DNA of 40,702 nucleotides, from the IMG/VR virus record IMGVR_UViG_3300017644_000058, positions 1-40,702 of that record; one strand, written 5' to 3'. Positions 6,352 through 40,628 of the stretch are shown piece by piece. Each line of letters begins with the position of its first letter. The first letter of the stretch is position 1. The notes under the pieces were generated by a model that was not told the origin of the DNA, did not search any database, and saw nothing but the letters and a program-made list of their open reading frames with translations. The position numbers and the translations under genes are program-made. This stretch comes from a virus (Duplodnaviria; Caudoviricetes).

Positions 6352-6626
6352 GCATGGCCAGAGCAGAATTCTTCGACGAGCTCGCAGGCGTCCTCACCGA
6401 TCGCGAGGACCAATATGGCGCTCCCGCCAAGCTGTTCGACGAGATCGCGCGCATTTGGACCTTGATCTTGAGCTTCGAGGTCGAACCCGAGCAGGTCGCC
6501 TTGTGCATGATCGGCGTGAAGGTCGCGCGCCTCAGCCACAACTGGTCGCACGCCGACAGCATCAAGGATGTCGCCGGCTACGCCGCCATTCTCTCCCAAC
6601 TGGTCAGCGAGGCTCGCGCGAAATGA
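6348..6626 (+). CDS. DUF6378-like small phage protein
   Basis: DREDQYG...IARIW...VALCMIGVKVARL...HADSIKDVAGYAA; ATGA overlaps on both sides. Confidence 0.75.
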   Translation: MSMARAEFFDELAGVLTDREDQYGAPAKLFDEIARIWTLILSFEVEPEQVALCMIGVKVARLSHNWSHADSIKDVAGYAAILSQLVSEARAK

Positions 6627-7075
6627 AATACACGCCCAAGGACATCGAGGAACGATTCGAAGAAGCAGCTTCAACGCTCCGCCGCCTGCCCGACGCGCGT
6701 GTGCCAGGCTACTTCAGCACCTGGCCACCGATGATCCGAGCCGCCGCCGAAGCCTACGGCTACGATCCTGCGCGGATGCCGCGGATCGCACCGACGCCGC
6801 AGGCGATCAGCCGCATGGAAGAGACGTTCACGTGGCTGACTTGGCTTGAACCGGACGACGCGCGCATCGTGTGGCTGCGTGCCGAGGGCGTTCGCTGGAA
6901 GCCGATCTGCTGGCGTGTTGGCCTATCGCGCGCCGTCGCGTGGCGGCGGTGGGTTGCTTCGCTGATCACCATCGCAAACCGGCTCAATTCCAAGTACTTC
7001 GTGGGCATCAAGAAGGGCCGCAGGAAAGGCGTGGCCGCAACCATCGACGAAGCACGCCGCGAAGGCCTGCTTTAG
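6623..7075 (+). CDS. DUF6362-like protein with C-terminal HTH; possible late-gene regulator
   Basis: EERFEEAASTLRRLP...GYFSTWP...RMEETFTWL...IVWLRAEGVRWKPICWRVG; last early gene before the cos candidate. Confidence 0.7.
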   Translation: MKYTPKDIEERFEEAASTLRRLPDARVPGYFSTWPPMIRAAAEAYGYDPARMPRIAPTPQAISRMEETFTWLTWLEPDDARIVWLRAEGVRWKPICWRVGLSRAVAWRRWVASLITIANRLNSKYFVGIKKGRRKGVAATIDEARREGLL

Positions 7076-7188
7076 TCGTCGCATAAACCGCAACGCACGT
7101 CGAACTTTTGGCTTCAACAATGAAACGCTTTTCGGCATGTTTGCTGGCATGATCGCGGGACGCGCGCCCGCCCATCCCCGCCGGCCAT

Positions 7189-7231
7189 AGGTTCTTTTCG
7201 CCGCCGAGCGTATGCGGGCGGCAAAGGCGCG
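7189..7231 (+). other. Lambda-like cos candidate (cosQ-like + cosN-like)
   Basis: AGGTTCT (7189-7195; lambda cosQ is GGGTCCT), then GGGCGGCAAAGG-CGCG (7216-7231; lambda has GGGCGGCGACCT-CGCG); consistent with the GpA-type terminase. Confidence 0.6.
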
Positions 7232-7260
7232 ATCGAAATCTAGCGACAGCATGCAAATCC

Positions 7261-7304
7261 GGTTGCGCACCCTGGGTGCGCACCTTCGGGTGCGCGGGTG
7301 CGCA
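7261..7304. repeat. Four GG(G/T)TGCGC repeats; candidate cosB-like terminase-binding sites
   Basis: Copies at 7261, 7274, 7288 and 7296; the second contains the palindrome GGTGCGCACC. Confidence 0.5.
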
Positions 7305-7332
7305 TTGCCGCATCGAATCTTGGAGACATCGC

Positions 7333-8073
7333 TTGCAGATCGAGACCCGGCCGATCGAGCGGCTGATCCCCTACGTTCGCAATGCGCGGACGCATTCGGA
7401 GGATCAGATCGCGCAGATCGCCGCCTCGATCGCCGAGTTCGGCTTTGTCAATCCGGTGTTGATCGGCGCCGACGACATGATCGTCGCCGGCCACGGCCGC
7501 GTGCTCGCCGCAAAGCTTCTCGGCCTCGCCGAGGTGCCGGTGATCGTACTCGATCATCTGAGCGAAGCGCAGCGACGGGCGCTTGTGATCGCCGACAACC
7601 GGATCGCCGAGAACGCCGGCTGGGACGAGGCAATGCTTCGCGCCGAGCTCGCCGCGCTTCGCGACGATGAATTCGATCTCGACGTGCTCGGCTTCAGCGA
7701 CGACGATCTCTTGCACATCCTCGATTCCATCGACGGCGCCTCGCTCGGGGGCAAGGACGCCGATGCCTCCGGCACTCCTCGCGCCGGATCGTCGGCGTCC
7801 GAGCCGTCTGCCACATTGGCCGAACGGTTCGGGATTCCGCCCTTCAGCGTGCTCGATGCCCGCAAGGGCTGGTGGCAGGACCGCAAGCGCGCCTGGATCG
7901 ACCTCGGTATCCGCTCCGAGCTCGGGCGCGGCGCGGCTCCTGGCGGCAGCCCACGCCCGCTTGATCGCGAGCGGATCGCAAAGGCGGTGGCGCCAGGCGG
8001 TTCACCCTTGCCGGCGGCCGATTATTCCAAATCAAAGGCTCGCGGCGACGGGCGTGGCCGGCAATTGCCATGA
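7333..8073 (+). CDS. ParB/Srx N-terminal domain protein with a methyltransferase-associated C-terminal segment
   Basis: TTG start after GGAGA; LIPYVRNARTHS...EFGFVNPVLI...IVAGHGRVLAA...IADNRIAENAGWD; C-terminal LAERFGIPPFSVLDARKGWWQDRKRAW. Confidence 0.85.
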   Translation: MQIETRPIERLIPYVRNARTHSEDQIAQIAASIAEFGFVNPVLIGADDMIVAGHGRVLAAKLLGLAEVPVIVLDHLSEAQRRALVIADNRIAENAGWDEAMLRAELAALRDDEFDLDVLGFSDDDLLHILDSIDGASLGGKDADASGTPRAGSSASEPSATLAERFGIPPFSVLDARKGWWQDRKRAWIDLGIRSELGRGAAPGGSPRPLDRERIAKAVAPGGSPLPAADYSKSKARGDGRGRQLP

Positions 8074-8870
8074 CGAATCTCACTTTCGCCAAGGGTGTTC
8101 GCGACGCCGACGATCTTGATCCGGTTTCACAAGCGATCCTTGAGGTCGGATCAGGCACATCGATCTTCGATCCGGTGATTTGCGAGATCGCTTATCGCTG
8201 GTTCTGTCCACCGAATGGCACGGTGCTCGATCCGTTCGCCGGCGGCTCGGTCCGCGGCGTTATCGCCTCCCGGCTCGGGCGCCGCTATGTCGGCATTGAG
8301 CTCCGCCCCGAGCAGGTGGCCGCCAATGTCGCGCAGCTTAATCTTGCGGGCGATCCGACGCCCGAATGGCAGCAGGGCGATGCGCGCCAGATAGGGCGGC
8401 TCGCAGCCGACATCGAAGCCGATCTGATCTTCTCGTGTCCGCCTTATTGGAATCTGGAACGCTATTCAGACGATGCGGCCGATCTCTCGAATATGGGCCG
8501 CGAGGATTTCTTCGCAGCCTATGGCGCAATCATCCGCGATGCGGTCGCGCGGCTTCGCAACGATCGCTTTGCGGTGTGGGTGATCGGCGATGTCCGCGAC
8601 GACGATGGCTGCTACGTGAACCTTCCGGGCCGCACGGCCGAAGCGTTCGAGGCAGCCGGCGCGCGCTTCTACAACGACGCGATCCTTGTGACCGCCGTCG
8701 GCTCTCTCCCGGTGCGCGTTGGGCGACAGTTCGAAGTCTCGCGCAAGCTCGGGCGCACGCATCAGAACGTGATGGTTTTCGTGAAAGGCGATCCGCGAAA
8801 GGCGACCGAGGCCTGCGGCCCGGTCGAGTTCGGCGAGATCGCGCAAGGAGAGGAATTTGACGCAGGGTAG
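8070..8870 (+). CDS. Amino (N4-C/N6-A type) DNA methyltransferase-fold enzyme
   Basis: Motif I VLDPFAGGS, GIEL, then motif IV FSCPPY; ATGA overlap with the ParB gene. Confidence 0.85.
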   Translation: MTNLTFAKGVRDADDLDPVSQAILEVGSGTSIFDPVICEIAYRWFCPPNGTVLDPFAGGSVRGVIASRLGRRYVGIELRPEQVAANVAQLNLAGDPTPEWQQGDARQIGRLAADIEADLIFSCPPYWNLERYSDDAADLSNMGREDFFAAYGAIIRDAVARLRNDRFAVWVIGDVRDDDGCYVNLPGRTAEAFEAAGARFYNDAILVTAVGSLPVRVGRQFEVSRKLGRTHQNVMVFVKGDPRKATEACGPVEFGEIAQGEEFDAG

Positions 8871-9633
8871 CGCATTGGCAGCGCGCGCGGCTCATGCCCG
8901 CGAGGAAGCCGGTTCGATTCCGGCCCCTGCAACCAGTCCTGCCGCCGCCGAGCATGGCGGCGTACTCGTCGTTCGGGACGATCTCTATCCCGGCGGAACG
9001 AAGGCGCGCTTCATCGGTGCATTCTTCCGCGATGCCGACGAAGCGGTCTATGCGAGTCCGGCGGAAGGCGGTGCGCAGACGGCGCTTGCGACCGTTGCCC
9101 GCCAGCTCGGCAAACGGGCGACCATCTTCGTCGCCCAGCGCATCCGGCCGCACCCGCGGACGCTCGAAGCGGCGCGGCTCGGCGCAAAGATCGTGAGCGT
9201 GCAGCCGGGATATCTTTCGGTCGTTCAGGCGCGCGCTCGCGAGTACTGCTCGCGAACCGGCGCAGCGCTCGTCCCGTTCGGCGTCGATGTGGAATTCGCA
9301 GTCGAGGCGATTGCCTGTGCTGCGGCCTCGCTTCGCATCGAGCCGGATGAAGTCTGGTGCGCCGCGGGTTCGGGCGTTCTTGCCCGCGGTCTTGCTCGGG
9401 CTTGGCCGAACGCACGCCGGCATGTGGTGCAGGTGGGGCGTGCCTTGAACGCCGCGGACGTTGCGTGCGCGACGATCCACGACTATCCGCTTCCGTTCGG
9501 CCGAGAGGCGCGCGTCAGACCGCCGTTTCCGTCCGACCCGCACTATGACGCGAAAGCCTGGGAGCGATGCGCGGCCCGGAAGGGTCCGGGCCGCATCGTC
9601 TTCTGGAATGTTGCCGGGCCGGCGCGGCCCTAA
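8857..9633 (+). CDS. Fold-type II PLP-dependent enzyme (ACC deaminase/cysteine synthase-like)
   Basis: VRDDL..GGTKAR (PLP Lys), AAGSG phosphate loop, DPHYDAKAW, VFWNVAG; TTG start behind AAGGAGAGGA. Confidence 0.75.
   Translation: MTQGSALAARAAHAREEAGSIPAPATSPAAAEHGGVLVVRDDLYPGGTKARFIGAFFRDADEAVYASPAEGGAQTALATVARQLGKRATIFVAQRIRPHPRTLEAARLGAKIVSVQPGYLSVVQARAREYCSRTGAALVPFGVDVEFAVEAIACAAASLRIEPDEVWCAAGSGVLARGLARAWPNARRHVVQVGRALNAADVACATIHDYPLPFGREARVRPPFPSDPHYDAKAWERCAARKGPGRIVFWNVAGPARP
8861..8935 (+). tRNA. Initiator tRNA-Met(CAT)-like cloverleaf embedded in coding sequence
   Basis: Acceptor CGCAGGG/CCCTGCA with C1:A72 mismatch; D stem GCGC/GCGC; anticodon stem CGCGG/CCGCG with loop CT-CAT-GC; T arm GCCGG-TTCGATT-CCGGC; discriminator A and encoded CCA. 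Confidence 0.85.
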
Positions 9634-10344
9634 TCAGGCGGCTTGTCGGCGCGCCTCAAGTGCGATGATGCAAAGATCGCGGTAGCGCGCGATGGCTTTC
9701 GGGCTTGAACTGACCGGGTTGATCTCGAAGGCGCGCAACCCCTTGATGTCGCCGGACTTGGCGAGTTCGACTACGCTCGCGAGCTTGTTGCGGAAACGCT
9801 TGTGCGTCTCGGCACTGAAGTCCGGCGGCTCCGGAAGCTTGCCCTCGCGCGCCGCAGCCTCGATCGCGGCGCGCTTGCCCGGCGGGCGCTGCTTGCCGGC
9901 CGGCTGCGGCTCTCGCGATGCATCGGGAGTAAGTTTCGCATCGCGCGGGTCGGCGTGCTTCGGCTGCTGCTTAAGGCGCCACGTGAAGCCTTCCTTCGCC
10001 TTCACGATTTCGATTTTGTCGAGATCGTGGCCGGCGGCCTTGGCGGCACGCTGAGCATTAAACTTCTTGGCATAGGTTTTCATCGAACCCTCCTTGCTCT
10101 CGGTTGGAATGTTGTCGGTGACGAGCGCCGAGCGGCCCTCGGCGTCGATGGCGTAAATCAGGGCGCGGCGCCCATAGGGGTGTTCGGCTTCAAGGCTCGG
10201 CGCGGCATCGTTCCGCGCTTCGCTCAAGGTTCTCGCGGAAGCGTGTGCGTATTTGCCTCGGCCGATGAAGAGCGCGATGTCGAACCGGATCGCATTGGCG
10301 ATAGTCGCGGCATCGCGCTCGGTTGGCGGATGAACTTTCGGCAT
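9634..10344 (-). CDS. Hypothetical protein on the opposite strand, with a second in-frame start at 10083
   Basis: GGAGGG SD before ATG 10344; AAGGAGGG SD before in-frame ATG 10083. Confidence 0.7.
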   Translation of the reverse strand: MPKVHPPTERDAATIANAIRFDIALFIGRGKYAHASARTLSEARNDAAPSLEAEHPYGRRALIYAIDAEGRSALVTDNIPTESKEGSMKTYAKKFNAQRAAKAAGHDLDKIEIVKAKEGFTWRLKQQPKHADPRDAKLTPDASREPQPAGKQRPPGKRAAIEAAAREGKLPEPPDFSAETHKRFRNKLASVVELAKSGDIKGLRAFEINPVSSSPKAIARYRDLCIIALEARRQAA

Positions 10345-10445
10345 TGATTGCCCTCCGTTTCGCGCGAGCACTCAGGCTCGACCGGCAAACGAGAGCAACT
10401 GCTAAGTTACTGGTTTTCTGAGCATATCGGGAGCACTGGAGCAGC

Positions 10446-11018
10446 ATGGGTCTGTCCCGCAGGGCTTATGCGCGCCACCGCGGCGTAGCCGAGAACGCCG
10501 TCCGGAAAGCGATCACCTCGGGCCGGATCACGCTCGAACCGGACGGCACCATCGATCCCGAAAAGGCGGACCGCGATTGGGCCTCCCGCACCGATCCTTC
10601 GCAGCAACGCGGCGTGCACGCGCAGCGGACCGACAATGCCGCTGCCGATTCCGGCAAAGCGGTCCCGCGCGCCGCGATCGATGTCGTTCAGAAGGCGCTG
10701 CGCGATTCCGGCACGAAGCCGGAAGGCGATGTGACCTTCCTTCGCGCACGCACCGCGAACGAAGTCATCAAGGCGCAGGAACGCAGCGTGCGCCTCGCAA
10801 AGATCAAGGGCGAGCTGGTCGATCGGGCGCGCGCGGTCGCGACCGTGTTCGGCCTCGCGCGCCGTGAGCGCGACGCTTGGGTGCAGTGGCCGGCGCGTGT
10901 CGCAGCGCTGATGGCCAACGAGCTGCGCGTCGATCCGCACGCCATGGAAACGGTGCTTGATAAGCATGTTCGCAGGCACCTCGCCGAACTCTCCGAAATC
11001 CGGGTCGAACTCCGGTGA
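10446..11018 (+). CDS. Terminase small subunit (Nu1-like)
   Basis: N-terminal HTH MGLSRRAYARHRGVAENAVRKAI, helical region with KGELVDRARA; directly upstream of the large subunit. Confidence 0.8.
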   Translation: MGLSRRAYARHRGVAENAVRKAITSGRITLEPDGTIDPEKADRDWASRTDPSQQRGVHAQRTDNAAADSGKAVPRAAIDVVQKALRDSGTKPEGDVTFLRARTANEVIKAQERSVRLAKIKGELVDRARAVATVFGLARRERDAWVQWPARVAALMANELRVDPHAMETVLDKHVRRHLAELSEIRVELR

Positions 11019-12963
11019 AGCGTTTGAGGGCGAAGCCGACATCATTCGAGCCTGGGCGCGCGGGCTTGCGCCCGATCCGTCGCTGACGGTCTCGGAATGG
11101 GCGGACCGGTATCGGATTCTTTCGTCCCGCGCTTCCTCGGAAGCGGGCCGCTACAGGACCGATCGCACGCCCTACATGCGCGCCATCATGGATGCGCTGT
11201 CGCCGTCGCATCCGGCACGGCGGATCGTGTTCATGTCCGGCGCACAGCTCGGCAAGACCGAAGCCGGCAACAATTGGATCGGCTACTGCATCCATCAGGC
11301 GCCCGGACCGTTTCTTGCGGTCCAACCGACAACGGAATTGGCAAAGCGGCTTTCGCAGCAGCGGATCGAGCCGCTCATCGAGGAAAGCCCCGAACTGCGC
11401 GAGATCGTGATGCCGGCGCGTGCGCGCGATTCCGGCAACACGGTCCTCGCCAAGCGATTTGCCGGCGGGCAACTGGTGCTTACGGGCGCGAACAGCGCGG
11501 TCGGCCTTCGCTCGATGCCGGCGCGCTGGCTCTTCCTCGACGAAGTGGACGCCTATCCGGGCGATGTCGAAGGCGAAGGCGATCCCGTCGCCCTGGCCGA
11601 AGCGCGGACGCGGACGTTCGGACACCGCCGGAAGGTCTTCATGGTCTCGACGCCGACGATCAAGGGATTGTCGCGGATCGAGCGCGAGTTCGAAGCGACG
11701 GACCAGAGACGCTATTTCGTTCCGTGCCCGTATTGCAGCCACATGCAATGGCTTCGCTTCGAGCGCCTGCGCTGGGAAAAAGGCCAACCTGAAACGGCCG
11801 AATACATTTGCGAGAACTGCGAGCGAGGCATTGCCGAACATCACAAGACCGCGATGCTCGCTTCAGGCGAGTGGCGCGCGACCGCGGAATGCGCCGACCC
11901 GCATGTGATCGGCTTTCATATTTCCGGCCTGTATTCGCCCGTGGGCTGGCTCTCCTGGGAGCAGATCGCCCGTGAATGGGAAGCCGCGCAGGGCAACGAC
12001 GCCGCGCTGAAAGCCGCCAAAAACACGCTCCTTGGCGAGTCATGGCAGGAGCGCGGCGAAGCGCCAGACTGGAAACGGCTTTATGAGCGCGAGAAGGATC
12101 ACGCGCTGCGGACTGTGCCGTTCGGTGCCCTCGTGCTCACGGCCGGCGCCGACATCCAGCATGATCGAATCGAGATCGATGTGTGGGCGTGGGGCCGCGG
12201 CCTCGAAAGCTGGCTCGTCGATCACATCGTTATCGACGGCGATACGTCGCGCGCGACGGTCTGGGATGACCTGACACGACTGCTGGCTTCCGAATGGAAG
12301 CACGAAGGCGGCGCACCGATGCGGATCGCGCGGCTCGCGATCGATTCCGGCGACGGCCGTTCGACATCGCAGGTCTATGCCTGGGTGCGGAAATTCGGCG
12401 CGGGCGTCGCCGCCGCTATCAAGGGCGTTGACGGCTTCGATCGATCCTCGCCGATAGACGGCCCGACTTTCGTCGATGCGACGGAGGACGGACGCAAAAT
12501 TCGGCGCGGTGTCCGGCTATGGAAGGTTTCTGTCGCGGTATTCAAATCCGAAACCTACCGCTTTCTGCGGCTTGAGCGGCCGACGGCCGAGGAGCTCGCG
12601 GAAGGCATCGCCTTCCCCGACGGCTTCATTCATTTGCCCGCGGGGATCTCGGCCGAATGGGTGAAGCAGCTCACCGCCGAGCAACTGGTCACGGTTCGTG
12701 ACCGGCGCGGCTTCACGAAACTTGAATGGCGGCAGATGCGGGAGCGCAACGAGGCCCTCGATTGCCGGGTCTATGCGCGCGCCGCCGCCTGGATGCTCGG
12801 CGTCGATCGCTGGACCGATGCGAAGTGGAAGTCGCTTGAGCAGCAAGTGGCGGCCGATCGCGCGCCCGAACAAATGGCCGGCGAGGTGCGGCTTCGAGCA
12901 GCGCCAACCGAGAAGCGCAAATCGAACTGGCTCGGTGGCCGCGCAGGCGGATGGTTCCGATGA
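10966..12963 (+). CDS. Terminase large subunit, lambda GpA family
   Basis: TVSEWAD, SGAQLGKTE (Walker A), FLDEVD (Walker B), STPT, CPYC/CENC Zn motifs, RNEALDC. Start uncertain (10957/10966). Confidence 0.95.
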   Translation: MFAGTSPNSPKSGSNSGEAFEGEADIIRAWARGLAPDPSLTVSEWADRYRILSSRASSEAGRYRTDRTPYMRAIMDALSPSHPARRIVFMSGAQLGKTEAGNNWIGYCIHQAPGPFLAVQPTTELAKRLSQQRIEPLIEESPELREIVMPARARDSGNTVLAKRFAGGQLVLTGANSAVGLRSMPARWLFLDEVDAYPGDVEGEGDPVALAEARTRTFGHRRKVFMVSTPTIKGLSRIEREFEATDQRRYFVPCPYCSHMQWLRFERLRWEKGQPETAEYICENCERGIAEHHKTAMLASGEWRATAECADPHVIGFHISGLYSPVGWLSWEQIAREWEAAQGNDAALKAAKNTLLGESWQERGEAPDWKRLYEREKDHALRTVPFGALVLTAGADIQHDRIEIDVWAWGRGLESWLVDHIVIDGDTSRATVWDDLTRLLASEWKHEGGAPMRIARLAIDSGDGRSTSQVYAWVRKFGAGVAAAIKGVDGFDRSSPIDGPTFVDATEDGRKIRRGVRLWKVSVAVFKSETYRFLRLERPTAEELAEGIAFPDGFIHLPAGISAEWVKQLTAEQLVTVRDRRGFTKLEWRQMRERNEALDCRVYARAAAWMLGVDRWTDAKWKSLEQQVAADRAPEQMAGEVRLRAAPTEKRKSNWLGGRAGGWFR

Positions 12964-32227: not shown

Positions 32228-32470
32228 CAGGTGAGGCAGCGGTTAGTCCGCATGGTCGCCGGCCTAAAGTCCTGCGAACCACCTATCTCAGTGACGACGG
32301 CTGGCCGGCTCTTTAGGACAATCGGGGCGCTGCATCGCAGCATCCGGATGCGGGCTCACGTTCCTTCCTTCCGACTGTCACCAAGTGTTGCCCCGACGCA
32401 GGGCTTCGGGCAAAAAGGGGAGTCTGGGATGCAGATGGGTTGCGGCAAACCAGCGGGGGGAGCTCGATTC

Positions 32471-34489
32471 TTGACCTCAATGAGGGGAGATATTGTCAAC
32501 CGCGTATCGCGGTTGCCGAAACCGACCCAAGCGGCTGAAGCTCTGCAGCCGCTCTTCGAGGCTGTGAGCAACTCGCTTCATGCGGTGGAAGACGCGTTCG
32601 GCGAAGCCAATCGCGATAAGGGTGCCATTTACGTGACGGTCGCGAGACCCGGAAATCCCTCCGAGGTCGAAATCATCGTGGCCGACAACGGTATTGGCCT
32701 TGAGCCGAAGCGCTTCGACGCGTTTTGCACAACAGACACTGACTACAAGATCGGCCGAGGGGGCAAGGGCGTCGGTCGGCTTCTCTGGCTCGACGCATTC
32801 TCCTCGATAAAGGTCGTCAGCAACTATCAAGAGGATGGGAAGTGTTTCAGACGCTCGTTTTCCTTCCGCCTGGAATCTACGGATCAGATCACTGATGAGT
32901 TAGTGAGCGAACAATCGCCGGACGGGTTCCGCCCCGGCACAACAGTGACGTTCACCGGACTGCGTGGCACCGCCTACCGGGCGAAATTTCCAAGCCAGCC
33001 TAAGACGATCGTTAAGCACTTCGGTTCACACTTCTTCGCCGATTTCATTCTCGGGCGATCGCCGAGAATTGTTGTTGATATTGATGGAGAGGCAACGAAT
33101 TTTCCCGAAGAAATTCAAAACTTGCGGATTGAGGACAGGGGGACAGCGGATTTCGAATCACCTGAGTTCGGCGCGCTGAGACTCGCGAGCTTCGTTTGCC
33201 ACAAGAGCGCCAGCGCAAACCTGGATGGCCTTCACCAAATGCACCTGGTCGCGAACGGCCGCACCGTGACCAGCCGAAAAATCGATGGTCTCCTGGGCAT
33301 CGGCCGCTTCGGCTCCGATGATGACCAAGTTTACCACGGATGCGTGACCGGTCAGTTCTTAGACGAACGAGTCAATCAAGAGAGGACGCAATTCAATTTC
33401 GACGAAAGCATTGTTGAGCAAATCGTCAGGGAATGTGCCGAACATGCGCGCACGAATGCGATTCACGAGGAAGTGGAGGAGTTCGACTCCCAGCGGCTCG
33501 GTACGATGCAGGATTTCATCAAGGAGTATCCATCCTTTGCATTTGAGGATGCCGAGCAACTCCTGAATCGGACGCCAAAGAATGCTGTGAAGGCTGAGCA
33601 ATTCGCCCAGGCGCTCATACCCATCCGTATACGAAGGGACAAAGAGCGGAACGAGACTGTCCAGCAGATTGTATCAAAACTTGAAACCGGTGAAGACGTC
33701 CCCGCCGACTTTGCCGATAGAGTTCGCAAGGCTGCTGACGAAATCCGAGCCGAGGAGCAGCGTCAGCTCACAGAATACGTTCTTCGCCGGAAAATCGTAC
33801 TCGATGTGATGGAAGTCCTGATCCGACGGATCAGGGAACGGACCGACGGCACGCAAGACCATCATCTTGAGAGCACGCTTCATCAGTTCATTTGCCCGAT
33901 GCGGGTCCGCGGAGATGATCCTTCCAAGGTCGAGCGCTCCGATCACGACCTCTGGATCATCGACGAGCGACTGACGTTCACAAAATATTTTGCTTCGGAC
34001 ATTCAGTTTTCCCAGTTCGTCTCCGGTGACGAGAGCACAAAGCGGTCAGACCTCTTCATCTTCGATCGCCTTCACGGTTTAGGATTTGAAGGCGACGAGC
34101 CTCTGAAGCGGGTCATGCTCGTCGAGTTCAAGCAGCCCGGTCGGCGCGACTATCCCGAGCGTTACTCGCCGATGAACCAGGTCAGTGAATACATTACCCG
34201 CCTCAAGAATGGGGAAATCGAAGACTTCCGCAACGCCCGTGTCCGCATCGCTGAAGATTGCGTCTTCTATTGCTACGTGGTGGCAGATATCGTCGGAAAG
34301 CTTGATGTGCACACGAGCGCCTGGCGGACAACCTCAAACGGACGCGGGCGCATCACGGAGTTGCAAGGTAAGTTTCGCGGCATCATTGAAGTAATTGAGT
34401 GGGCGGATTTGATCTCCGACGCTCGGCTGCGAAATCACGCGTTCGTCCATGCCGCCGGCTTACGATATGAGCGGCACATCCATGGCTAA
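32471..34489 (+). CDS. GHKL (MORC/MutL-like) ATPase fused to a PD-(D/E)XK-like nuclease; candidate defence gene
   Basis: FEAVSNSLHA, DNGIG, GGKGVGR, GTTVT; C-terminal DLWIIDERL, RSDLFIF...LVEFKQPG. Start TTG 32471 (GGGGGAG SD) or ATG 32480. Confidence 0.75.
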   Translation: MTSMRGDIVNRVSRLPKPTQAAEALQPLFEAVSNSLHAVEDAFGEANRDKGAIYVTVARPGNPSEVEIIVADNGIGLEPKRFDAFCTTDTDYKIGRGGKGVGRLLWLDAFSSIKVVSNYQEDGKCFRRSFSFRLESTDQITDELVSEQSPDGFRPGTTVTFTGLRGTAYRAKFPSQPKTIVKHFGSHFFADFILGRSPRIVVDIDGEATNFPEEIQNLRIEDRGTADFESPEFGALRLASFVCHKSASANLDGLHQMHLVANGRTVTSRKIDGLLGIGRFGSDDDQVYHGCVTGQFLDERVNQERTQFNFDESIVEQIVRECAEHARTNAIHEEVEEFDSQRLGTMQDFIKEYPSFAFEDAEQLLNRTPKNAVKAEQFAQALIPIRIRRDKERNETVQQIVSKLETGEDVPADFADRVRKAADEIRAEEQRQLTEYVLRRKIVLDVMEVLIRRIRERTDGTQDHHLESTLHQFICPMRVRGDDPSKVERSDHDLWIIDERLTFTKYFASDIQFSQFVSGDESTKRSDLFIFDRLHGLGFEGDEPLKRVMLVEFKQPGRRDYPERYSPMNQVSEYITRLKNGEIEDFRNARVRIAEDCVFYCYVVADIVGKLDVHTSAWRTTSNGRGRITELQGKFRGIIEVIEWADLISDARLRNHAFVHAAGLRYERHIHG

Positions 34490-37400
34490 TCGGCAGACAG
34501 CTCAAAGCTGCCATCGTCTAGTCGTGAACTTGTGAATGCGTTCAACATCATGCCAAGTCGTCCGGGATCAGTGACGAGCAGGTAATGCCAGACTCCGAAC
34601 TGACCGAGTCGCGTCACCGCGGCAGCCCATCGTTCCGCCGCCTTCGCCTTTACGTCTGCACTGTCAGACACCTGGCCCTTGACCTCTATAATGAGGTTTT
34701 GGTCGCTGTCGGTGACAGCGATGAAATCGGGAACGTATTTGGCCGGCAATCCGCGGCTACGATACGGGATGAAGAATCCGAGCCGGTCGTTTTTGACCCA
34801 TCGTTTCACGCCGGGGTGCGTGTCGAGAAGAAAGGCCGCGCTCTGCTCCCATTTCTGCGTGTCGGCCACCATCGCGTTCAGGTGGCAATGATTTACAGGA
34901 TAGATCGGCTTGGTCGTGTGGAAATCGACATAAAGAGTACTGCCGCGCCCGGCCGCGCCCTGCGGGATGATGGCCACCTCGGCGTCGGTTGTTGAGGCGC
35001 CCTTCTTGATGGCGTCCAGCAGCGCGCCTACGGACGCCTGCATGTATTCGCCGACCAGCAGCACGTCGCAAGGTTGGCTGTCTCCCTTCCTTTCCAGTTT
35101 CTCGGCAAGGAATCGTTTCGCGGCGAAGGCGACGCGCGGAAACAATTGCTGAACCGGCACGGCTGCCGCGCCGTTGTCGGCCTGCCAACGCACACAAATT
35201 TCCCGCGCAAGCCGGAACGCGACTTGCTGATCACGGAACAGGGCGCGCCAGTCTTTAAGAGACAGGACTGGCTTCTCCCCAGGCCCATAGGCTGCAAGCG
35301 TCCCATCAGGCGTCGTCAGCGGGGTCAATTCGACCAGCTGCGGAATGCGCATGGGGTCGATGGTGACTTTCGCCACTTGATCCCAATCGACCGATACTTC
35401 GAGGCTGCCGGCCTGATAGTAGCCAGTCACGATGGGGAAGGTTATTTCGTAGTGCGCCTTCTCCGGTACCGAATAAATATGGTTCGGGTCCGGCTGCGGT
35501 GGCTGTGGGCCTGCGGGCGCAACCTTGAACGGGATCAACTCGAACGGCACGCCGAAGACCTTGGCGGTCTCCTCGGCGAACATCTGCGTCTCCTCATTGA
35601 GAGCGTAGCTCTTCCGGCGCAGCGCTCGGCCAACGACCTGCTCGCACAGCAATTGCGAGCCAAACGGTCGTAGGCCAACAATGTGCGTTACGGTGTTGGC
35701 GTCCCAGCCTTCAGCCAGCATGGCGACGGATACGATGCAGCGCACGTCCCGGCCGGGCGGAACGCGCTCGTCGATCCACTTTAGCGAGCCATCATTGTCG
35801 TCGCTCGCCGCCTTCTCGTTGTGCTTGCGCACGAGCTCAACCCATTCCTCCGGCACTTTTCCGCCGGGCCATTCCGCCTTTCCGACAGTATCGAGGATAA
35901 AGCGCAGGCGCCGCGTTTCATCCTTGGTGCCACCTGCCTCGATATCCTCGATGACCTTGGAGTCGATGCGCACAGTCACTTCCTGGCCAGGCGTATTTCG
36001 GAACCACGGTGGCGAGACGCCATAGCTGTCATTGCCGTTGGCGAGCCAGGAATGCACCTCCCGCGCGACCGCCGTATCGCGACAGACGACGATGAAGACC
36101 GGCGGAACGGGGTGGCGCTGCTGTTGCCTGGAATACTGCTCCCACTCTACGAACCGCTGGTGCCATTCGGCCGCAAGAAGGTTGATGGGCGCGCTCGCGT
36201 AGTTCATCACGATCTCGGGCGTGATGTTGGTCCCGTAACCGTCTTCCTTCGCTTTTGCCTGCACCCACCGCCAGATATTGAAATAGGCCGCTTCCTCCGC
36301 GCCGGTTACGTCGCGGGCAGGTAGCTGCGGAATCTTCACGAGGCCGGATTCGATGGCGTCTAGCAGACCGAAGTCAGACACAATCCACGGAAACGGCTTG
36401 CCGACTTCGTTGCCGGAACCCTGAATGTAGAAAGGCGTCGCCGAGAGATCGACGCACAGGTGGATGCCGCGTCGCCGACTGCCCCCAGCAAGCTTGTTGA
36501 TACGGTCAAGCCCTTCGATCCAGATCGTCGCTTCGCGATCGTTCTTGCTTGCGAGGTCTTTGTCCTCGTCGAGCGATTGTTCGTCTGTCGCAACGTCGCC
36601 GCGGCGATAGGCGTGGTGCGCCTCATCGTTGAAGATCAGCCAGTGTGGGCTGCGACCTTTGCCGCTGCCAAGTTCGCGACGGATGCGCTTGAACCATGCG
36701 GCGTCGGACTCGAAATATTTCGTCTCGACGGTCTCGTTGGCCTTGCCGGCGTTCTTCACGACTTCAACCGGCTCGCCGGTCTTCACGACCTTGGCGGTGT
36801 CGCCGTTGACGCTATTGGTCTCCTTCTTGGCGAGGCGATGCCAATTGGCGATCATCACCTCGCCGCGCCGCAAGTCCTCCATCCGGTGGACAGGGACCAA
36901 CTGCCGGGTTCTGTATAGCGAGAGATCCCCGAGGGCGGGGTCCAGTTCCTGCAAGCGCTCCCGAATTGTGACGTTCGGGCAGACGATCAGGACCGTATCA
37001 GAAAAGCGGTCGTCGCGCGGCGACGCCACGCTGTTGAGGATGGACCAGCCGGCGAGCATTCCCATGACGGTGGTCTTGCCGGAGCCGGTCGCCATCTTGC
37101 AGGCGTAGCGAACGAAAGCACGGATGCCGGCCGCCTTCGATTCCAGGCCGGGTTCATCTTTCGGAATCTCGGGCAGACCCTTGCGGTAAATGTCCGCGGC
37201 TTCTGTGAGGAAGATGATCGTTTCGGCCGCTTCTATCTGCGCGAAAAAAAGCCGCTGCATGCGGTCGCTGCTGCGCCAGAGTTCCAGAAGCTCCTTTGTG
37301 ATCGGCGACGCGCCGTCATAGGCGACGCTGCCGGAACGGGTCCCGTCGCGCCATTCCCTCACGCGCTCGCGGATGAGGTTGACGATCTCAAGTTCGACTT

Positions 37401-37641
37401 CCTCGCCCTTGGCGTCGTCAAACAGCTCGGCCTGCTGCTTCTTTTTTCGGCCGCGCCCGGCGTGTTCAGGCACGCGATAGAAATAGCTGGCGCGGCGTCG
37501 ACCCTCGGCCTTGACGGGCGGCTTTCCGCGCTCGATGACCCAATGATAGGCCGGCTCGCGGAACGGGGAATTGATGATCGGCGAGTCAACCTCGGCGACC
37601 GTGACCGGCGGCTCCTGCGGCTTGGAGGCGGCGGGCATCAC
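34486..37641 (-). CDS. Type III-like restriction subunit (Res; SF2 helicase + nuclease)
   Basis: KMATGSGKT, FNDEAHH, LSATP, MLAEGWD; C-terminal YVPDF...IIEVKG. Confidence 0.9.
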   Translation of the reverse strand: MMPAASKPQEPPVTVAEVDSPIINSPFREPAYHWVIERGKPPVKAEGRRRASYFYRVPEHAGRGRKKKQQAELFDDAKGEEVELEIVNLIRERVREWRDGTRSGSVAYDGASPITKELLELWRSSDRMQRLFFAQIEAAETIIFLTEAADIYRKGLPEIPKDEPGLESKAAGIRAFVRYACKMATGSGKTTVMGMLAGWSILNSVASPRDDRFSDTVLIVCPNVTIRERLQELDPALGDLSLYRTRQLVPVHRMEDLRRGEVMIANWHRLAKKETNSVNGDTAKVVKTGEPVEVVKNAGKANETVETKYFESDAAWFKRIRRELGSGKGRSPHWLIFNDEAHHAYRRGDVATDEQSLDEDKDLASKNDREATIWIEGLDRINKLAGGSRRRGIHLCVDLSATPFYIQGSGNEVGKPFPWIVSDFGLLDAIESGLVKIPQLPARDVTGAEEAAYFNIWRWVQAKAKEDGYGTNITPEIVMNYASAPINLLAAEWHQRFVEWEQYSRQQQRHPVPPVFIVVCRDTAVAREVHSWLANGNDSYGVSPPWFRNTPGQEVTVRIDSKVIEDIEAGGTKDETRRLRFILDTVGKAEWPGGKVPEEWVELVRKHNEKAASDDNDGSLKWIDERVPPGRDVRCIVSVAMLAEGWDANTVTHIVGLRPFGSQLLCEQVVGRALRRKSYALNEETQMFAEETAKVFGVPFELIPFKVAPAGPQPPQPDPNHIYSVPEKAHYEITFPIVTGYYQAGSLEVSVDWDQVAKVTIDPMRIPQLVELTPLTTPDGTLAAYGPGEKPVLSLKDWRALFRDQQVAFRLAREICVRWQADNGAAAVPVQQLFPRVAFAAKRFLAEKLERKGDSQPCDVLLVGEYMQASVGALLDAIKKGASTTDAEVAIIPQGAAGRGSTLYVDFHTTKPIYPVNHCHLNAMVADTQKWEQSAAFLLDTHPGVKRWVKNDRLGFFIPYRSRGLPAKYVPDFIAVTDSDQNLIIEVKGQVSDSADVKAKAAERWAAAVTRLGQFGVWHYLLVTDPGRLGMMLNAFTSSRLDDGSFELSAD

Positions 37642-40340
37642 CGGCCTCCTTCCACGCTCTTGACGACCATCAACTCATTGCCGCGCTCGTCTATAGCCTT
37701 CACGGCTATGCGCTTCTTATCGCCAAGCACGAAGGGTTCACTGACCGTGCCAGCCAGGTGCTCCCAAACGCTGTCGCTGAATCGGCCTTTCAGGGATTTT
37801 TGAAGGTTGTCCCACGCGCTGGTCTTGGGAAAGAACACTTGCGTCGCCATGAACACCATGCCGTTATAATTGCTGTCGAGCATCCAGCACGGCAGGTTCT
37901 CGGCGGCGACTTCCTCCGTCTCCATCGTGTCGGGCCGGAAAATGTCAAGGCCCTTAACGACGACGCGATGGAGCGGCGTTCCATCTTTTGCCTTCCCCGC
38001 CGGTTCAATTGCTACATCGGGCAGGCCGGTGATTGAGAAGATCTCGCTAGTTCTGGCGGTCTTCAGTAGATCGGACATAACGACGTCCGGCGTGACCGAA
38101 ACGTAGGTCATCGGCACCTTGAGACGGCCGAGCATTTCGCGTGCTTTTGGGTCGATCGCGAAGCCGAATATAAAAAGCTGTTGGAAGCCCTGCTGCAGCG
38201 CTTCTGTATGGGCGTCGTAGACGTACTGCGACCCAATGGCACCGCCCTCAGGACCGAACACGAAGGCGATGCGCTTATCGGCCCCATTCTTTGCCACGCC
38301 TTCGGCGTGAAGATATTCGCGGTCCGCGAGCGGCGCGATAGTTTCCAGTTGCAGCGTCACGTTGCCGGGCAACTGCAATGTCTTGCTCTGCCGCAGCACC
38401 TCGATCATGCGATCGAGATGAGCCCGGGGACTATTCGCCGCCGCTTGTGGCGTTTGCTGGCCGGAGCTTTCCTGTAGACTCAGCGCGGCCTGGATGGTCG
38501 CCTCAACCGTGAACCGCCCGCACACCCTTAGAACATTTCTGTTCAACTCAGGACGGTCCACCACGGTAACAACCTCTGGCTCTTCGTTGTTAGCTATGGA
38601 TTTAAGTGTGATCTTAGGGATAAGGCCTCCGATTTCTTCTCCCTTCTTATTTCGCTTGCGCTCATAGATGAAACCGCCCGCTGGCCCTTTCGAAGGCTCT
38701 TTCAGACGATACCAAGGGAACGTGCTTGTCAGGAGTCGCTGACGTGCAAGTGCGATAGGAACCCGAGAAGTGTCGCACGTTATCCAGCGGCGCCCCCATT
38801 GCTCGGCAACAACGGCAGTTGTGCCGGAGCCGCACGTAATGTCCATGACCAAATCTCCAGGGATTGTAGTCATGAGAATGCAGCGTTGGATGACCTTTGG
38901 GTTCGTTTGCACGACGTACAACTTGTCGGATGCAAACCCCGCAATACCCGTATCCATCCAACTGTTCGTGACGGGGACGAGCGGATTGTCATCGAGATAT
39001 CGAACATAGCCGATGTTGCGGCCGGCCTTCTCCACACGGCGGGCTTTTACAAGCCGCTCCATGCCAACCGGATAGTTAGCTTTCCAATGATTATTGGGGT
39101 TCGGTCGGAAGGTCTCGCCGTTGAAAACAAACGGCGTATCCTCGCGGGCGGCCCCTGAGCTTTGAAGGTCACCCAAACGGTAGATACGGGCACCGGGCGG
39201 TATGGGATCACTCCCATCGCGCTCTCCGCTGGTCATGGCCCTCCGTGTACCGTCACTTAGTTCAAGGTACTTGTAGGCGTCATCGCCTGTTTCCTTGTTC
39301 GCCTTGTCGAGAAAAAGCGGATTGTACGTTAGCGTGCCCTTATCCTTCGCGTACCAGAGAAGATAGTCGCCGACCCGGCTGATTGAGCCGGTCGCAAAAC
39401 CGCTGGTCGTGGCGAAATAGATCTGGGAGACGAAATTCTCTGAGCTGAAGACCTCGTCAAGAACCTCGCGAACGTGGTGAACGTTGTCCTCGGAAATCTG
39501 GACAAAAATCGATCCGGATGGGGTCAGAAGTTCTTTCGCGAAGGAGAGCCGATCGCGCAGATAAGTCAGATAGGAGTGAAGGCCCAGTTCCCACGTATCA
39601 CGATACGCCTTTACCATCTCCGGCTCGCGGATCATGGCGTCGTCTTTGCCGTGCGACACGTCGCGCTTGCGGACGAAGGGCTGGAAGTTCGATCCGAATT
39701 TCACGCCATAAGGCGGATCGAAATAGACCATCTGCACCTGGCCGCCCATCCCTTCGTATTCGAGCAGGGAGTTCATAACCTGCAACGAGTCGCCGAGGAT
39801 CAGGCGGTTGGTCCACGGCCCCTTGTGCTCGTAGGCGTCGAGCTTGTCGGCCACATCAAGGTTGGTGTCGCCGAACAGATCGAGATTGGTGCCAAGGGCT
39901 TTGTGGGATTTCAGGGTTTCGAGGATGGCCTCGGTGGAATGGCGTTCGTGGATGAACAGTGGCAGCGTCGGCACCGCGATCTGCTGGCGCTCGGCCTTGC
40001 CGGCCCAGGTGAGGAAAGGCTTGGTAAGGCTGCGTAGCCGGGCGACGCATTGCGAGAGCGAGGCAAAACTCTCGCCATTGCCTTTCCACACCTGCGGGAC
40101 GGCGAAGACCTTGGCTTCGCCCTTCTCGGCTGCGTCGGCGACAAGCGCCAACAACCACTCAGCGAAAGCCCGATCGGCACCCTCATCCCACGACAGCTCG
40201 GGCGCGAGGCTAGAATCGTAACGGTAGGTTTTGGGCGCCTTCTTCGTGCTGAACTGCGCTTCGATACCTGCATCAGGGCGCTGCACCATCTCCTGTTCGT
40301 GCTTGTAAACCGATGTTCCCAGCCCAGTGTCTTGCGCCAT
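37638..40340 (-). CDS. Type III-like N6-adenine DNA methyltransferase (Mod)
   Basis: NRLILGDSL, FDPPYG (motif IV) before MDITCGSGTT (motif I), i.e. beta order; GTGA overlap with Res. Confidence 0.9.
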   Translation of the reverse strand: MAQDTGLGTSVYKHEQEMVQRPDAGIEAQFSTKKAPKTYRYDSSLAPELSWDEGADRAFAEWLLALVADAAEKGEAKVFAVPQVWKGNGESFASLSQCVARLRSLTKPFLTWAGKAERQQIAVPTLPLFIHERHSTEAILETLKSHKALGTNLDLFGDTNLDVADKLDAYEHKGPWTNRLILGDSLQVMNSLLEYEGMGGQVQMVYFDPPYGVKFGSNFQPFVRKRDVSHGKDDAMIREPEMVKAYRDTWELGLHSYLTYLRDRLSFAKELLTPSGSIFVQISEDNVHHVREVLDEVFSSENFVSQIYFATTSGFATGSISRVGDYLLWYAKDKGTLTYNPLFLDKANKETGDDAYKYLELSDGTRRAMTSGERDGSDPIPPGARIYRLGDLQSSGAAREDTPFVFNGETFRPNPNNHWKANYPVGMERLVKARRVEKAGRNIGYVRYLDDNPLVPVTNSWMDTGIAGFASDKLYVVQTNPKVIQRCILMTTIPGDLVMDITCGSGTTAVVAEQWGRRWITCDTSRVPIALARQRLLTSTFPWYRLKEPSKGPAGGFIYERKRNKKGEEIGGLIPKITLKSIANNEEPEVVTVVDRPELNRNVLRVCGRFTVEATIQAALSLQESSGQQTPQAAANSPRAHLDRMIEVLRQSKTLQLPGNVTLQLETIAPLADREYLHAEGVAKNGADKRIAFVFGPEGGAIGSQYVYDAHTEALQQGFQQLFIFGFAIDPKAREMLGRLKVPMTYVSVTPDVVMSDLLKTARTSEIFSITGLPDVAIEPAGKAKDGTPLHRVVVKGLDIFRPDTMETEEVAAENLPCWMLDSNYNGMVFMATQVFFPKTSAWDNLQKSLKGRFSDSVWEHLAGTVSEPFVLGDKKRIAVKAIDERGNELMVVKSVEGGR

Positions 40341-40551: not shown

Positions 40552-40628
<77 letters not shown>

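Follow-up and report, generated by a model that had tools for sequence, protein, structure and literature searches.

A sense-strand, initiator-like tRNA nested in frame at the head of a phage PLP-enzyme gene

How can one piece of phage DNA serve as a complete tRNA gene and, on the same strand, as the beginning of an enzyme gene? This question is raised by the IMG/VR virus record IMGVR_UViG_3300017644_000058 (Duplodnaviria; Caudoviricetes), which we analysed over its full 40,702 nucleotides and refer to as the window. It is a single virus record representing a lambdoid temperate phage region, in which a pyridoxal-phosphate (PLP)-dependent enzyme's open reading frame (ORF) follows a methyltransferase (MTase) ORF and contains, directly behind its start, a tRNA-Met(CAU) (Table 1). 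As comparison with related loci shows, a tRNA with initiator hallmarks was inserted exactly in frame into an ancestral coupled junction, with the reading frame open in 26/26 junctions. With moderate confidence we read the element as a dual-coding cargo tRNA, packed into the PLP gene, passively partitioned between RNA and protein and likely excised from part of the late transcripts, so as to supplement translation initiation.

Two tRNA-Met genes were called by ARAGORN, the nested one (CAT) at 8861-8935 (+) and one of host type at 40552-40628 (-). The RF00005 covariance score was 58.1 bits for the nested tRNA (E 3.8e-10, gathering score 29) and 64.5 bits for the host-type copy, and both programs thus bear out the complete cloverleaf which the original prediction had drawn from the letters alone. 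The minimum free energy of the region was unremarkable (z -1.0) and is uninformative alone; the case for the tRNA rests on the covariance score and on the comparison. The tRNA has a C1xA72 mismatch, G2:C71, C3:G70, C11:G24, A73 and an encoded CCA, as well as U8, A14, U15, G18G19, A48 and the T loop of a regular tRNA, so that the predicted C1:A72, A73, CCA and swapped U15:A48 pair were all found in the sequence. Compared with the host copy it carries six double changes in the acceptor, anticodon and T stems plus C11:G24 for A11:U24, which makes seven changed stem pairs that nevertheless stay paired, as had been claimed. The anticodon stem consists of C29:G41, G30:C40 and G31:C39 and the loop reads CUCAUGC, i.e. 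G37 and C38.

In order to compare the element with its relatives we collected 170 viral relatives of the PLP core, using the best 80 for locus counts, and widened the tRNA-bearing set by DNA patterns to 26 distinct junctions with 19 distinct tRNAs. In this set the loop mostly reads CUCAUAC, and the earlier description of an atypical loop holds for the G37 and C38 of the window, but G37 is not typical of the family, where A37C38 is the norm and G37 occurs in 3/26 junctions. The CAU anticodon is present in all 26 junctions and CCA is encoded in 22. G2:C71 and C3:G70 are kept in 19/19 distinct tRNAs and 1:72 is unpaired in 18/19 via five different mismatches, with all four bases occurring at position 1; the 1x72 mismatch together with these two pairs forms the formyltransferase signature (PMC6393288). 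The three G:C pairs 29-31:39-41 of initiators are complete in 4/19 only, since the window and 15/19 tRNAs in total have C29:G41, whereas the essential G30:C40 is kept in 19/19. A cg/GC/GC anticodon stem ('1st CG' mutant) is viable and sustains E. coli (PMC5389676). The A37A38 loop of the host copies is replaced by G37C38 in the window and mostly by A37C38 in the relatives. On sequence grounds the nested tRNA is therefore initiator-like but falls short of some features of that family. A 100-aa ORF starting from ATG 8894 was rejected as incidental, as it needs the G37 of the 3/26 junctions.

ARAGORN detected a tRNA in 14 of the 80 PLP loci, which are the closest ones (80-100% identity), and none in the other 66. 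In 61 of these 66 the MTase stop and the PLP start overlap as NTGA 5-10 codons before an EHG motif, usually at -7, whereas in tRNA-bearing loci, the window included, the PLP start has moved to -31 codons, a shift of 72 nt. In the window the insert, a 72-nt body (tRNA 1-73), separates the A of codon 2 from its CC. The body measures 72 or 69 nt in the 14 ARAGORN loci, and a form of 84 nt (L130) is also present among the junctions. Downstream of the start we observed length changes of -3 (7 junctions), +12 (L130) and -6 in the spacer (L012, L127), three events that are all multiples of three (naive chance ~0.04), and no stop codon interrupts the frame through the tRNA in 26/26 junctions, so that frame preservation, a check proposed beforehand, turned out positively. 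A 1-nt shift upstream of the PLP start in 6/26 junctions, the window included, only lengthens the MTase. In these six the MTase ends at a stop on tRNA positions 8-10 (TAG in the window), as predicted, but this is not general: the other 20 have a TGA at -3..-1 that overlaps the PLP start. Neither G37 nor an MTase stop within the tRNA is more than a quirk of particular lineages.

For a phylogenetic tree we thinned out 24 distant rows without tRNA, omitted two ambiguous proteins and labelled database proteins from their N-terminal peptide only, which left 84 rows. The tree showed four changes of the tRNA label compared to a shuffled mean of 26.9, and 36 of the 41 tRNA rows are located in one branch (SH-aLRT, a likelihood-ratio branch support, 94). 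The tRNA-free locus L042 is nested among tRNA-bearing rows, showing that loss or recombination occurs, and a single origin of the insert is not proven. Among 401 genomes of the order of genome G039 five PLP matches were found, and of three junctions inspected only that of G039 itself carries the tRNA. An RF00005 search gave no match in 27 of 32 tRNA-free records; the records are partial, and the 69-nt form in L014 escaped the same search. Two side observations concern these relatives. The N-termini of the database PLP proteins P0019, P0035, P0064, P0009 and P0018 resemble a deleted, decayed or anticodon-changed insert, as judged from the protein only, and the tRNA-free relative G023 has a stand-alone fMet-like A38 tRNA (L173:1501-1574) ~6.5 kb upstream of its PLP match.

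Is the enzyme then translated through the tRNA? The original prediction had offered TTG 8857 and TTG 8875 as starts. An AAGGAG motif lies 6 nt ahead of TTG 8857, and a start at -4 or -1 exists in 26/26 junctions (18 TTG, 7 ATG and 1 CTG at -4), which speaks for the first; the second was discarded, as its position is unconserved and absent in 5/26. TTG is used in 18/26 tRNA junctions versus 3/65 tRNA-free loci. In agreement with the prediction, no in-frame ATG, GTG, TTG, CTG, ATT or ATC is present between the tRNA end and the VRDD motif, as checked in locus L001, which is identical. Purifying selection acts on the PLP core, with differences of 8-10% at codon positions 1-2 versus 42-44% at fourfold degenerate sites. 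In the AlphaFold2 (AF2) model the confidence score pLDDT is below 50 for residues 1-23, which are predicted to be disordered, and 78-97 per block in the core. Because the frame is open, the core is selected, a downstream start is missing and the N-terminus is probably disordered, the enzyme is most likely translated through the tRNA from TTG 8857, as had been proposed. Its nearest matches are D-cysteine desulfhydrase and 1j0a with ~19% identity (Foldseek TM-score to 1j0a 0.72), and we predict a fold type II enzyme, consistent with DNA-modifying PLP enzymes (PMC8989533). A tblastn search against GenBank phages returned PLP matches in only three records (Microcystis phage Mae-JY30 and two Erythrobacter phages). 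The trio of ParB, MTase and PLP genes (7276-9633) is in itself a candidate DNA hypermodification module.

Selection also appears to act on the RNA. In the 10 protein-found loci with a 72-nt body the fourfold divergence is 3.3% in the tRNA, 42% in the PLP core, and 36% and 49% in the two adjacent stretches of 40 codons; because of these diverged flanks a recent sweep was rejected as the cause of the low value. Invariant fourfold columns make up 11/13 in the tRNA versus 16/94 (Fisher p 2e-6). Across the 19 distinct tRNAs 300 of 304 stem cells are paired, the 69-nt group has swapped pairs at 28:42 and 29:41, and L010 and L127 have G15:C48 as their Levitt pair where most 72-nt members have U15:A48. 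The CAU is invariant in 26/26 although CAC would also encode His. The predicted selection on tRNA structure thus receives support from compensatory changes and from the low fourfold divergence, and the comparison shows a constraint at the RNA level beyond protein coding.

We propose that on some transcripts the enzyme would be translated from TTG 8857, while a share of the late transcripts would be cut by host tRNA-processing nucleases, freeing the starter tRNA. From established tRNA biology one would expect a cut by RNase P at +1 and 3' trimming to the CCA, followed by charging through methionyl-tRNA synthetase (MetRS) and formylation. The released tRNA could top up or replace the host tRNA-fMet and so help late phage protein synthesis, and C38 and the changed stems might, more speculatively, resist host anticodon nucleases. 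Nesting is best understood as a form of packing: the coupled ParB-MTase-PLP operon leaves no space between its genes, and a flexible extension at the N-terminus is tolerated by the enzyme. Since cuts at +1 and at the CCA would strip the Shine-Dalgarno (SD) sequence and the start from the PLP message, each mRNA would give either tRNA or enzyme, and the mutual exclusion claimed in the original prediction is supported in its logic by the gene anatomy. The MTase message left behind would end exactly at its own stop in 20/26 junctions and be a non-stop message in the window. The partition need not be regulated and may be forced by the lack of intergenic room, and a regulated processing switch is possible. 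Contigs of relatives bridge MTase, tRNA and PLP gene (X4 record 22, X9 record 25; possibly DNA). Two X1 contigs starting at 8907 were rejected as a sign of processing, 8907 being a variable site. Splicing out of tRNA 1-73, which would restore the ancestral spacing, was rejected as well: no such joint was found in the contigs of the four RNA-labelled runs compared, and the open frame makes it unneeded.

A second enzyme family shows the same nested design independently. We analysed 80 loci of the TAGT glycosyltransferase (PF20691) located downstream of a gene that resembles ParB-N but scores below the Pfam cut-off, in which 9/80 have an intact 72-nt CAU/C38 tRNA in frame in the N-terminal linker and 67/80 have no tRNA. 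The upstream stop is found on tRNA 8-10 or just before the tRNA, translation would start at an ATG ~17-24 codons upstream of it, and the fourfold divergence in seven loci is 14% in the tRNA versus 47%. Apart from these families, in-frame C38 tRNAs whose CAU encodes His were seen in the C-terminal tails of L196, L234 and L255 (Cro/YdaS-like), L226 (ClpP head protease), L086, L094 and L230 (hypothetical gene after a terminase-like ORF) and L091. The Myxococcales metagenome-assembled genome (MAG) L118 has an array of 11 tRNA-like repeats at 1107-2418, 10 of which are called tRNA-Met(CAT).

Where could such tRNAs come from? The fMet-type A37C38 pattern occurs in an estimated ~260 viral stretches, most of them without an evident host ORF (30/64 parts scanned; 120 loci, 95 distinct tRNAs parsed and 13 loci unparsed), and the A38 pattern in an estimated ~2600 (3/64 parts; att-site host copies included). 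Among 301 genomes of the Alphaproteobacteria, the class of G039, the A38 pattern was found in 184 and R37C38 in two, which are explained by this prophage family and by a 3'-half remnant; a complete chromosomal C38 gene was not found in these 301 genomes. The enrichment is measured against Alphaproteobacteria only and the viral set spans many host phyla. The unpublished genome G480 is one of the 184 and the claim is independent of it. U32 is present in 50/89 phage C38 tRNAs. The nested tRNA, as far as its sequence tells, belongs to this wider phage-enriched pool of initiator type. Direct capture from the att-site tRNA is not favoured: with a score of 61 the nested tRNA is nearer to other phage C38 tRNAs than to the host copy, where the score is 46.5, it lacks the core identity to the host tRNA of an att-site relic, and no match to the host tRNA of at least 12 nt occurs elsewhere in the window.

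Position 38 may matter for nucleases. Winther and Gerdes are said to have placed the exact VapC cut between 38 and 39 in 2011. The cuts made by VapCs fall within the anticodon of tRNAs or immediately 3' of it (PMC7180214; PMC4705866), an fMet-directed VapC has been reported from the alphaproteobacterium Bosea (PMC8522696), and loop changes of phage tRNAs have been proposed as nuclease evasion (PMC10264068), a view doubted for phage Sf14 (PMC12482277). A nuclease-resistant fMet substitute with C38 is plausible, and with less confidence C38 and the rewritten stems might blunt host anticodon nucleases such as an fMet-specific VapC. The divergence from the host tRNA may instead avoid recombination with the att-site tRNA, which is possible because a host-type fMet gene, or the 3' half of one, is present in several relatives, for the most part at the ends of the records.

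We rank packing with passive partitioning above feedback control, a decoy, a passenger, an aminoacyl donor and a non-initiator identity. With feedback control, failed initiation at the weak TTG, as might follow from depletion of the host fMet, would uncover the tRNA, which would fold and be excised, destroying the PLP message and restoring starter tRNA; in a variant MetRS would bind the anticodon in cis, as ThrRS does at the thrS operator. Counted from the first base of the start codon, the tRNA indeed starts 4 nt further on, inside the ribosome footprint, the TTG excess described above would fit a weak start, the TAGT family independently has its tRNA near the beginning of a DNA-modification enzyme that follows ParB, and an either/or model has been proposed for selB (Mukai 2021, PMC8124441). 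However, this excess is largely due to one lineage, 66/80 loci do without such control, and the TAGT enzymes have their ATG well ahead of the tRNA. A thrS-type operator does not match either, as we found a full tRNA in the coding region of a non-synthetase gene. We thus regard feedback control as rather unlikely, and equally tentative is the broader idea that ParB-linked DNA-modification operons at least twice recruited a nuclease-evading C38 initiator tRNA as a self-correcting sensor, in which depletion of tRNA-fMet by host defence would lower initiation on the enzyme gene and lead to excision of the uncovered tRNA, and the enzyme would be traded for a resistant tRNA. A released or embedded cloverleaf could also titrate host tRNA-targeting toxins and be unused in translation, and the missing R11:Y24, the loss of U8 and U33 in some members and the fMet-specific VapC of Bosea (PMC8522696) would agree with such a decoy. 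A decoy should resemble the target loop, whereas positions 37/38 differ from the host in 19/19 distinct tRNAs and conservation is strict for 1x72, 2:71, 3:70 and G30, which are formylation elements; a decoy is therefore improbable.

The insert could also be a passenger, either neutral or in decay, in other words a former cargo tRNA caught in the frame and retained only since its deletion must be a multiple of three. This is quite improbable: broken stems in 3/19 tRNAs, the T-loop insertions of the TAGT family, the likely remnants in P0019 and P0035 (N-termini only) and the position of L042 would be in line with it, but the synonymous divergence more than 10-fold below both flanks, the compensatory changes and the invariant CAU already largely refute it for the main branch. 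The original prediction had also considered that the neighbouring enzymes, the MTase/PLP pair, might use the tRNA as their dedicated aminoacyl donor or substrate, comparable to Mom of phage Mu that uses Gly-tRNA. Although tRNA-dependent DNA hypermodification is known (PMC13219725) and the tRNA stands beside a likely DNA-modification module in two families, this idea found no support and is very improbable, as the tRNA is absent from 66/80 PLP loci and 67/80 TAGT loci, most tRNA-free records had no RF00005 match within the limits given above, the ParB, MTase-fold and PALP trio contains no GNAT enzyme which could use an aminoacyl-tRNA, and a glycosyltransferase and a PLP enzyme, which carry the same kind of insert, have unrelated chemistries. 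The phage PLP enzymes that are known act on amino acids whose installation starts from free amino acids (PMC8989533). Least probable of all is an elongator Met or lysidine-modified Ile2 tRNA, for which the elongator-like C11:G24 and C29:G41 could be quoted, against the unpaired 1:72 in 18/19 and the fMet-like acceptor stem. Formation of N6-threonylcarbamoyladenosine (t6A37) requires A37A38, which is absent here. Bacterial IleRS needs this modification (PMC9976931).

Several observations weigh against our preferred reading as a dual-coding cargo tRNA that is excised for initiation. The tRNA has C11:G24 in place of R11:Y24, which is a formylation element (PMC9976931; PMC11231383), C33 is found in 5/19 distinct tRNAs, the 69-nt group has a compact D arm, which is combined with A8 and C33 in 7/26 junctions, and stem pairs are broken in three of the 19 (L128, L129, L130). 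In the TAGT loci 4/80 (4/13 inserts) have an additional 18 nt that disrupt the T loop but preserve the frame, so that a nested tRNA can decay. Most junctions come from one branch and are not independent, and 14/26 were found by T-arm DNA patterns and are hence biased to intact T arms. The first in-frame insertion would need no special selection, because 36/89 C38 tRNA bodies (one a nested copy) are multiples of three and open in this register, so that maintenance is the evidence. About 90% of the viral fMet-pattern matches, a count including host att-site copies, keep A38. Finally, the RNA-labelled runs (11 listed, best share 0.23) are assembled contigs, possibly of DNA, which show neither ends nor strand.

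Table 1: Features of the window and of the parallel TAGT loci.
Feature	Position	Strand	Remark
DUF6362 gene	6623..7075	+	ahead of the ParB-MTase-PLP trio (context)
ParB-N domain gene	7276..8073	+	first of the trio; true start probably somewhat downstream of 7276
N6/N4-methyltransferase-fold gene (MTase)	8070..8870	+	stop on tRNA positions 8-10 via the 1-nt shift upstream of the PLP start
SD-like AAGGAG 8845-8850, TTG start 8857-8859, A(-1)	8845..8860	+	ancestral NTGA stop/start coupling site, tRNA insertion point
PLP-dependent enzyme (PALP, fold type II predicted; PHROG 7093), 258 aa	8857..9633	+	tRNA in codons 2-27
Initiator-type tRNA-Met(CAU)	8861..8935	+	72-nt body 8861-8932, then CCA; ARAGORN, Rfam
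Terminase small and large subunits	10446..12963	+	mark the trio as the beginning of the packaging/late region
Host-type tRNA-fMet (A37A38, A29:U41)	40552..40628	-	contig end; comparison standard
TAGT nested C38 tRNAs	L423:1891-1965; L424-L433, L438, L440		

The gene order of the window is excisionase, primase-like AAA, RuvC-like, ParB, MTase, PLP enzyme, terminase, portal, capsid and gene transfer agent (GTA)-like tail genes, followed first by a type III-like restriction-modification pair and then by the host-type tRNA, which is the probable integration site. The host is likely an alphaproteobacterium, because a relative is located in a Pseudorhodoplanes MAG (L122). The DUF6362 gene may encode a late activator, and a scan of 6600-10500 for promoters and terminators found nothing. 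Small minus-strand genes (9634-10371) break up the late region between the PLP gene and the terminase. Between the tail/lysis genes and the host-type tRNA-fMet, region 32231-40340 holds a HATPase gene and the type III-like mod/res pair (BPTD_3080 family endonuclease), likely a defence cargo at the prophage end.

In our literature search, with supplements and most subscription papers outside its reach, no paper was found on the nested element, the ParB-MTase-PLP trio or the C38 phage fMet class. A tRNA nested in an ORF with an either/or model is already known from selC (tRNA-Sec) in the selB ORF of Alphaproteobacteria, where processing or translation was proposed (Mukai 2021, PMC8124441), and full tRNA genes nested in bacterial ORFs were termed unprecedented in 2021. 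New are the placement of the insert to the base against a tRNA-free ancestor, the C38 class with its host control and the convergent TAGT case. Near relatives keep the same junction minus exactly the tRNA and are a natural control, so the question of processing versus translation is directly testable, and the phage-enriched C38 initiator class offers a concrete test of phage tRNA evasion of anticodon nucleases. Annotation pipelines that forbid an overlap of tRNA and coding sequence will truncate the enzyme or lose the tRNA.

How close is the locus to known systems? As in selC/selB, a whole sense-strand tRNA lies in a translated, open and selected ORF, its length and its indels are multiples of three, stop and start are coupled, remnants exist in some lineages, and the either/or model is bioinformatic only in both. 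Unlike in selC/selB, the gene is a phage gene, the tRNA is N-terminal (codon 2) and of initiator type without a biochemical partner in the host protein, as shown by the 66/80 loci without tRNA, and most relatives still have the ancestral junction without the tRNA, which allowed the insertion to be placed to the base. The loop changes 3' of the anticodon, in the region that VapCs cut (PMC7180214), are shared with the phage tRNAs of van den Berg 2023 (PMC10264068), a study on mycobacteriophages and enteric phages; Shigella phages generally avoid fMet, and the passages of that paper available to us mention neither nesting nor a C38 fMet class. The phiLM21-like alphaproteobacterial prophages (PMC12429752) are also temperate and carry one or two CAU tRNAs as cargo, and unlike for the nested tRNA the corresponding passages do not mention an overlap with coding regions. 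M6 gp52 and ViI gp226, PLP decarboxylases of thymidine hypermodification (PMC8989533), are likewise phage PLP enzymes, with 1j0a as the template for gp226, whereas the partners here are ParB and an MTase fold, and M6 and ViI are absent from the three tblastn records.

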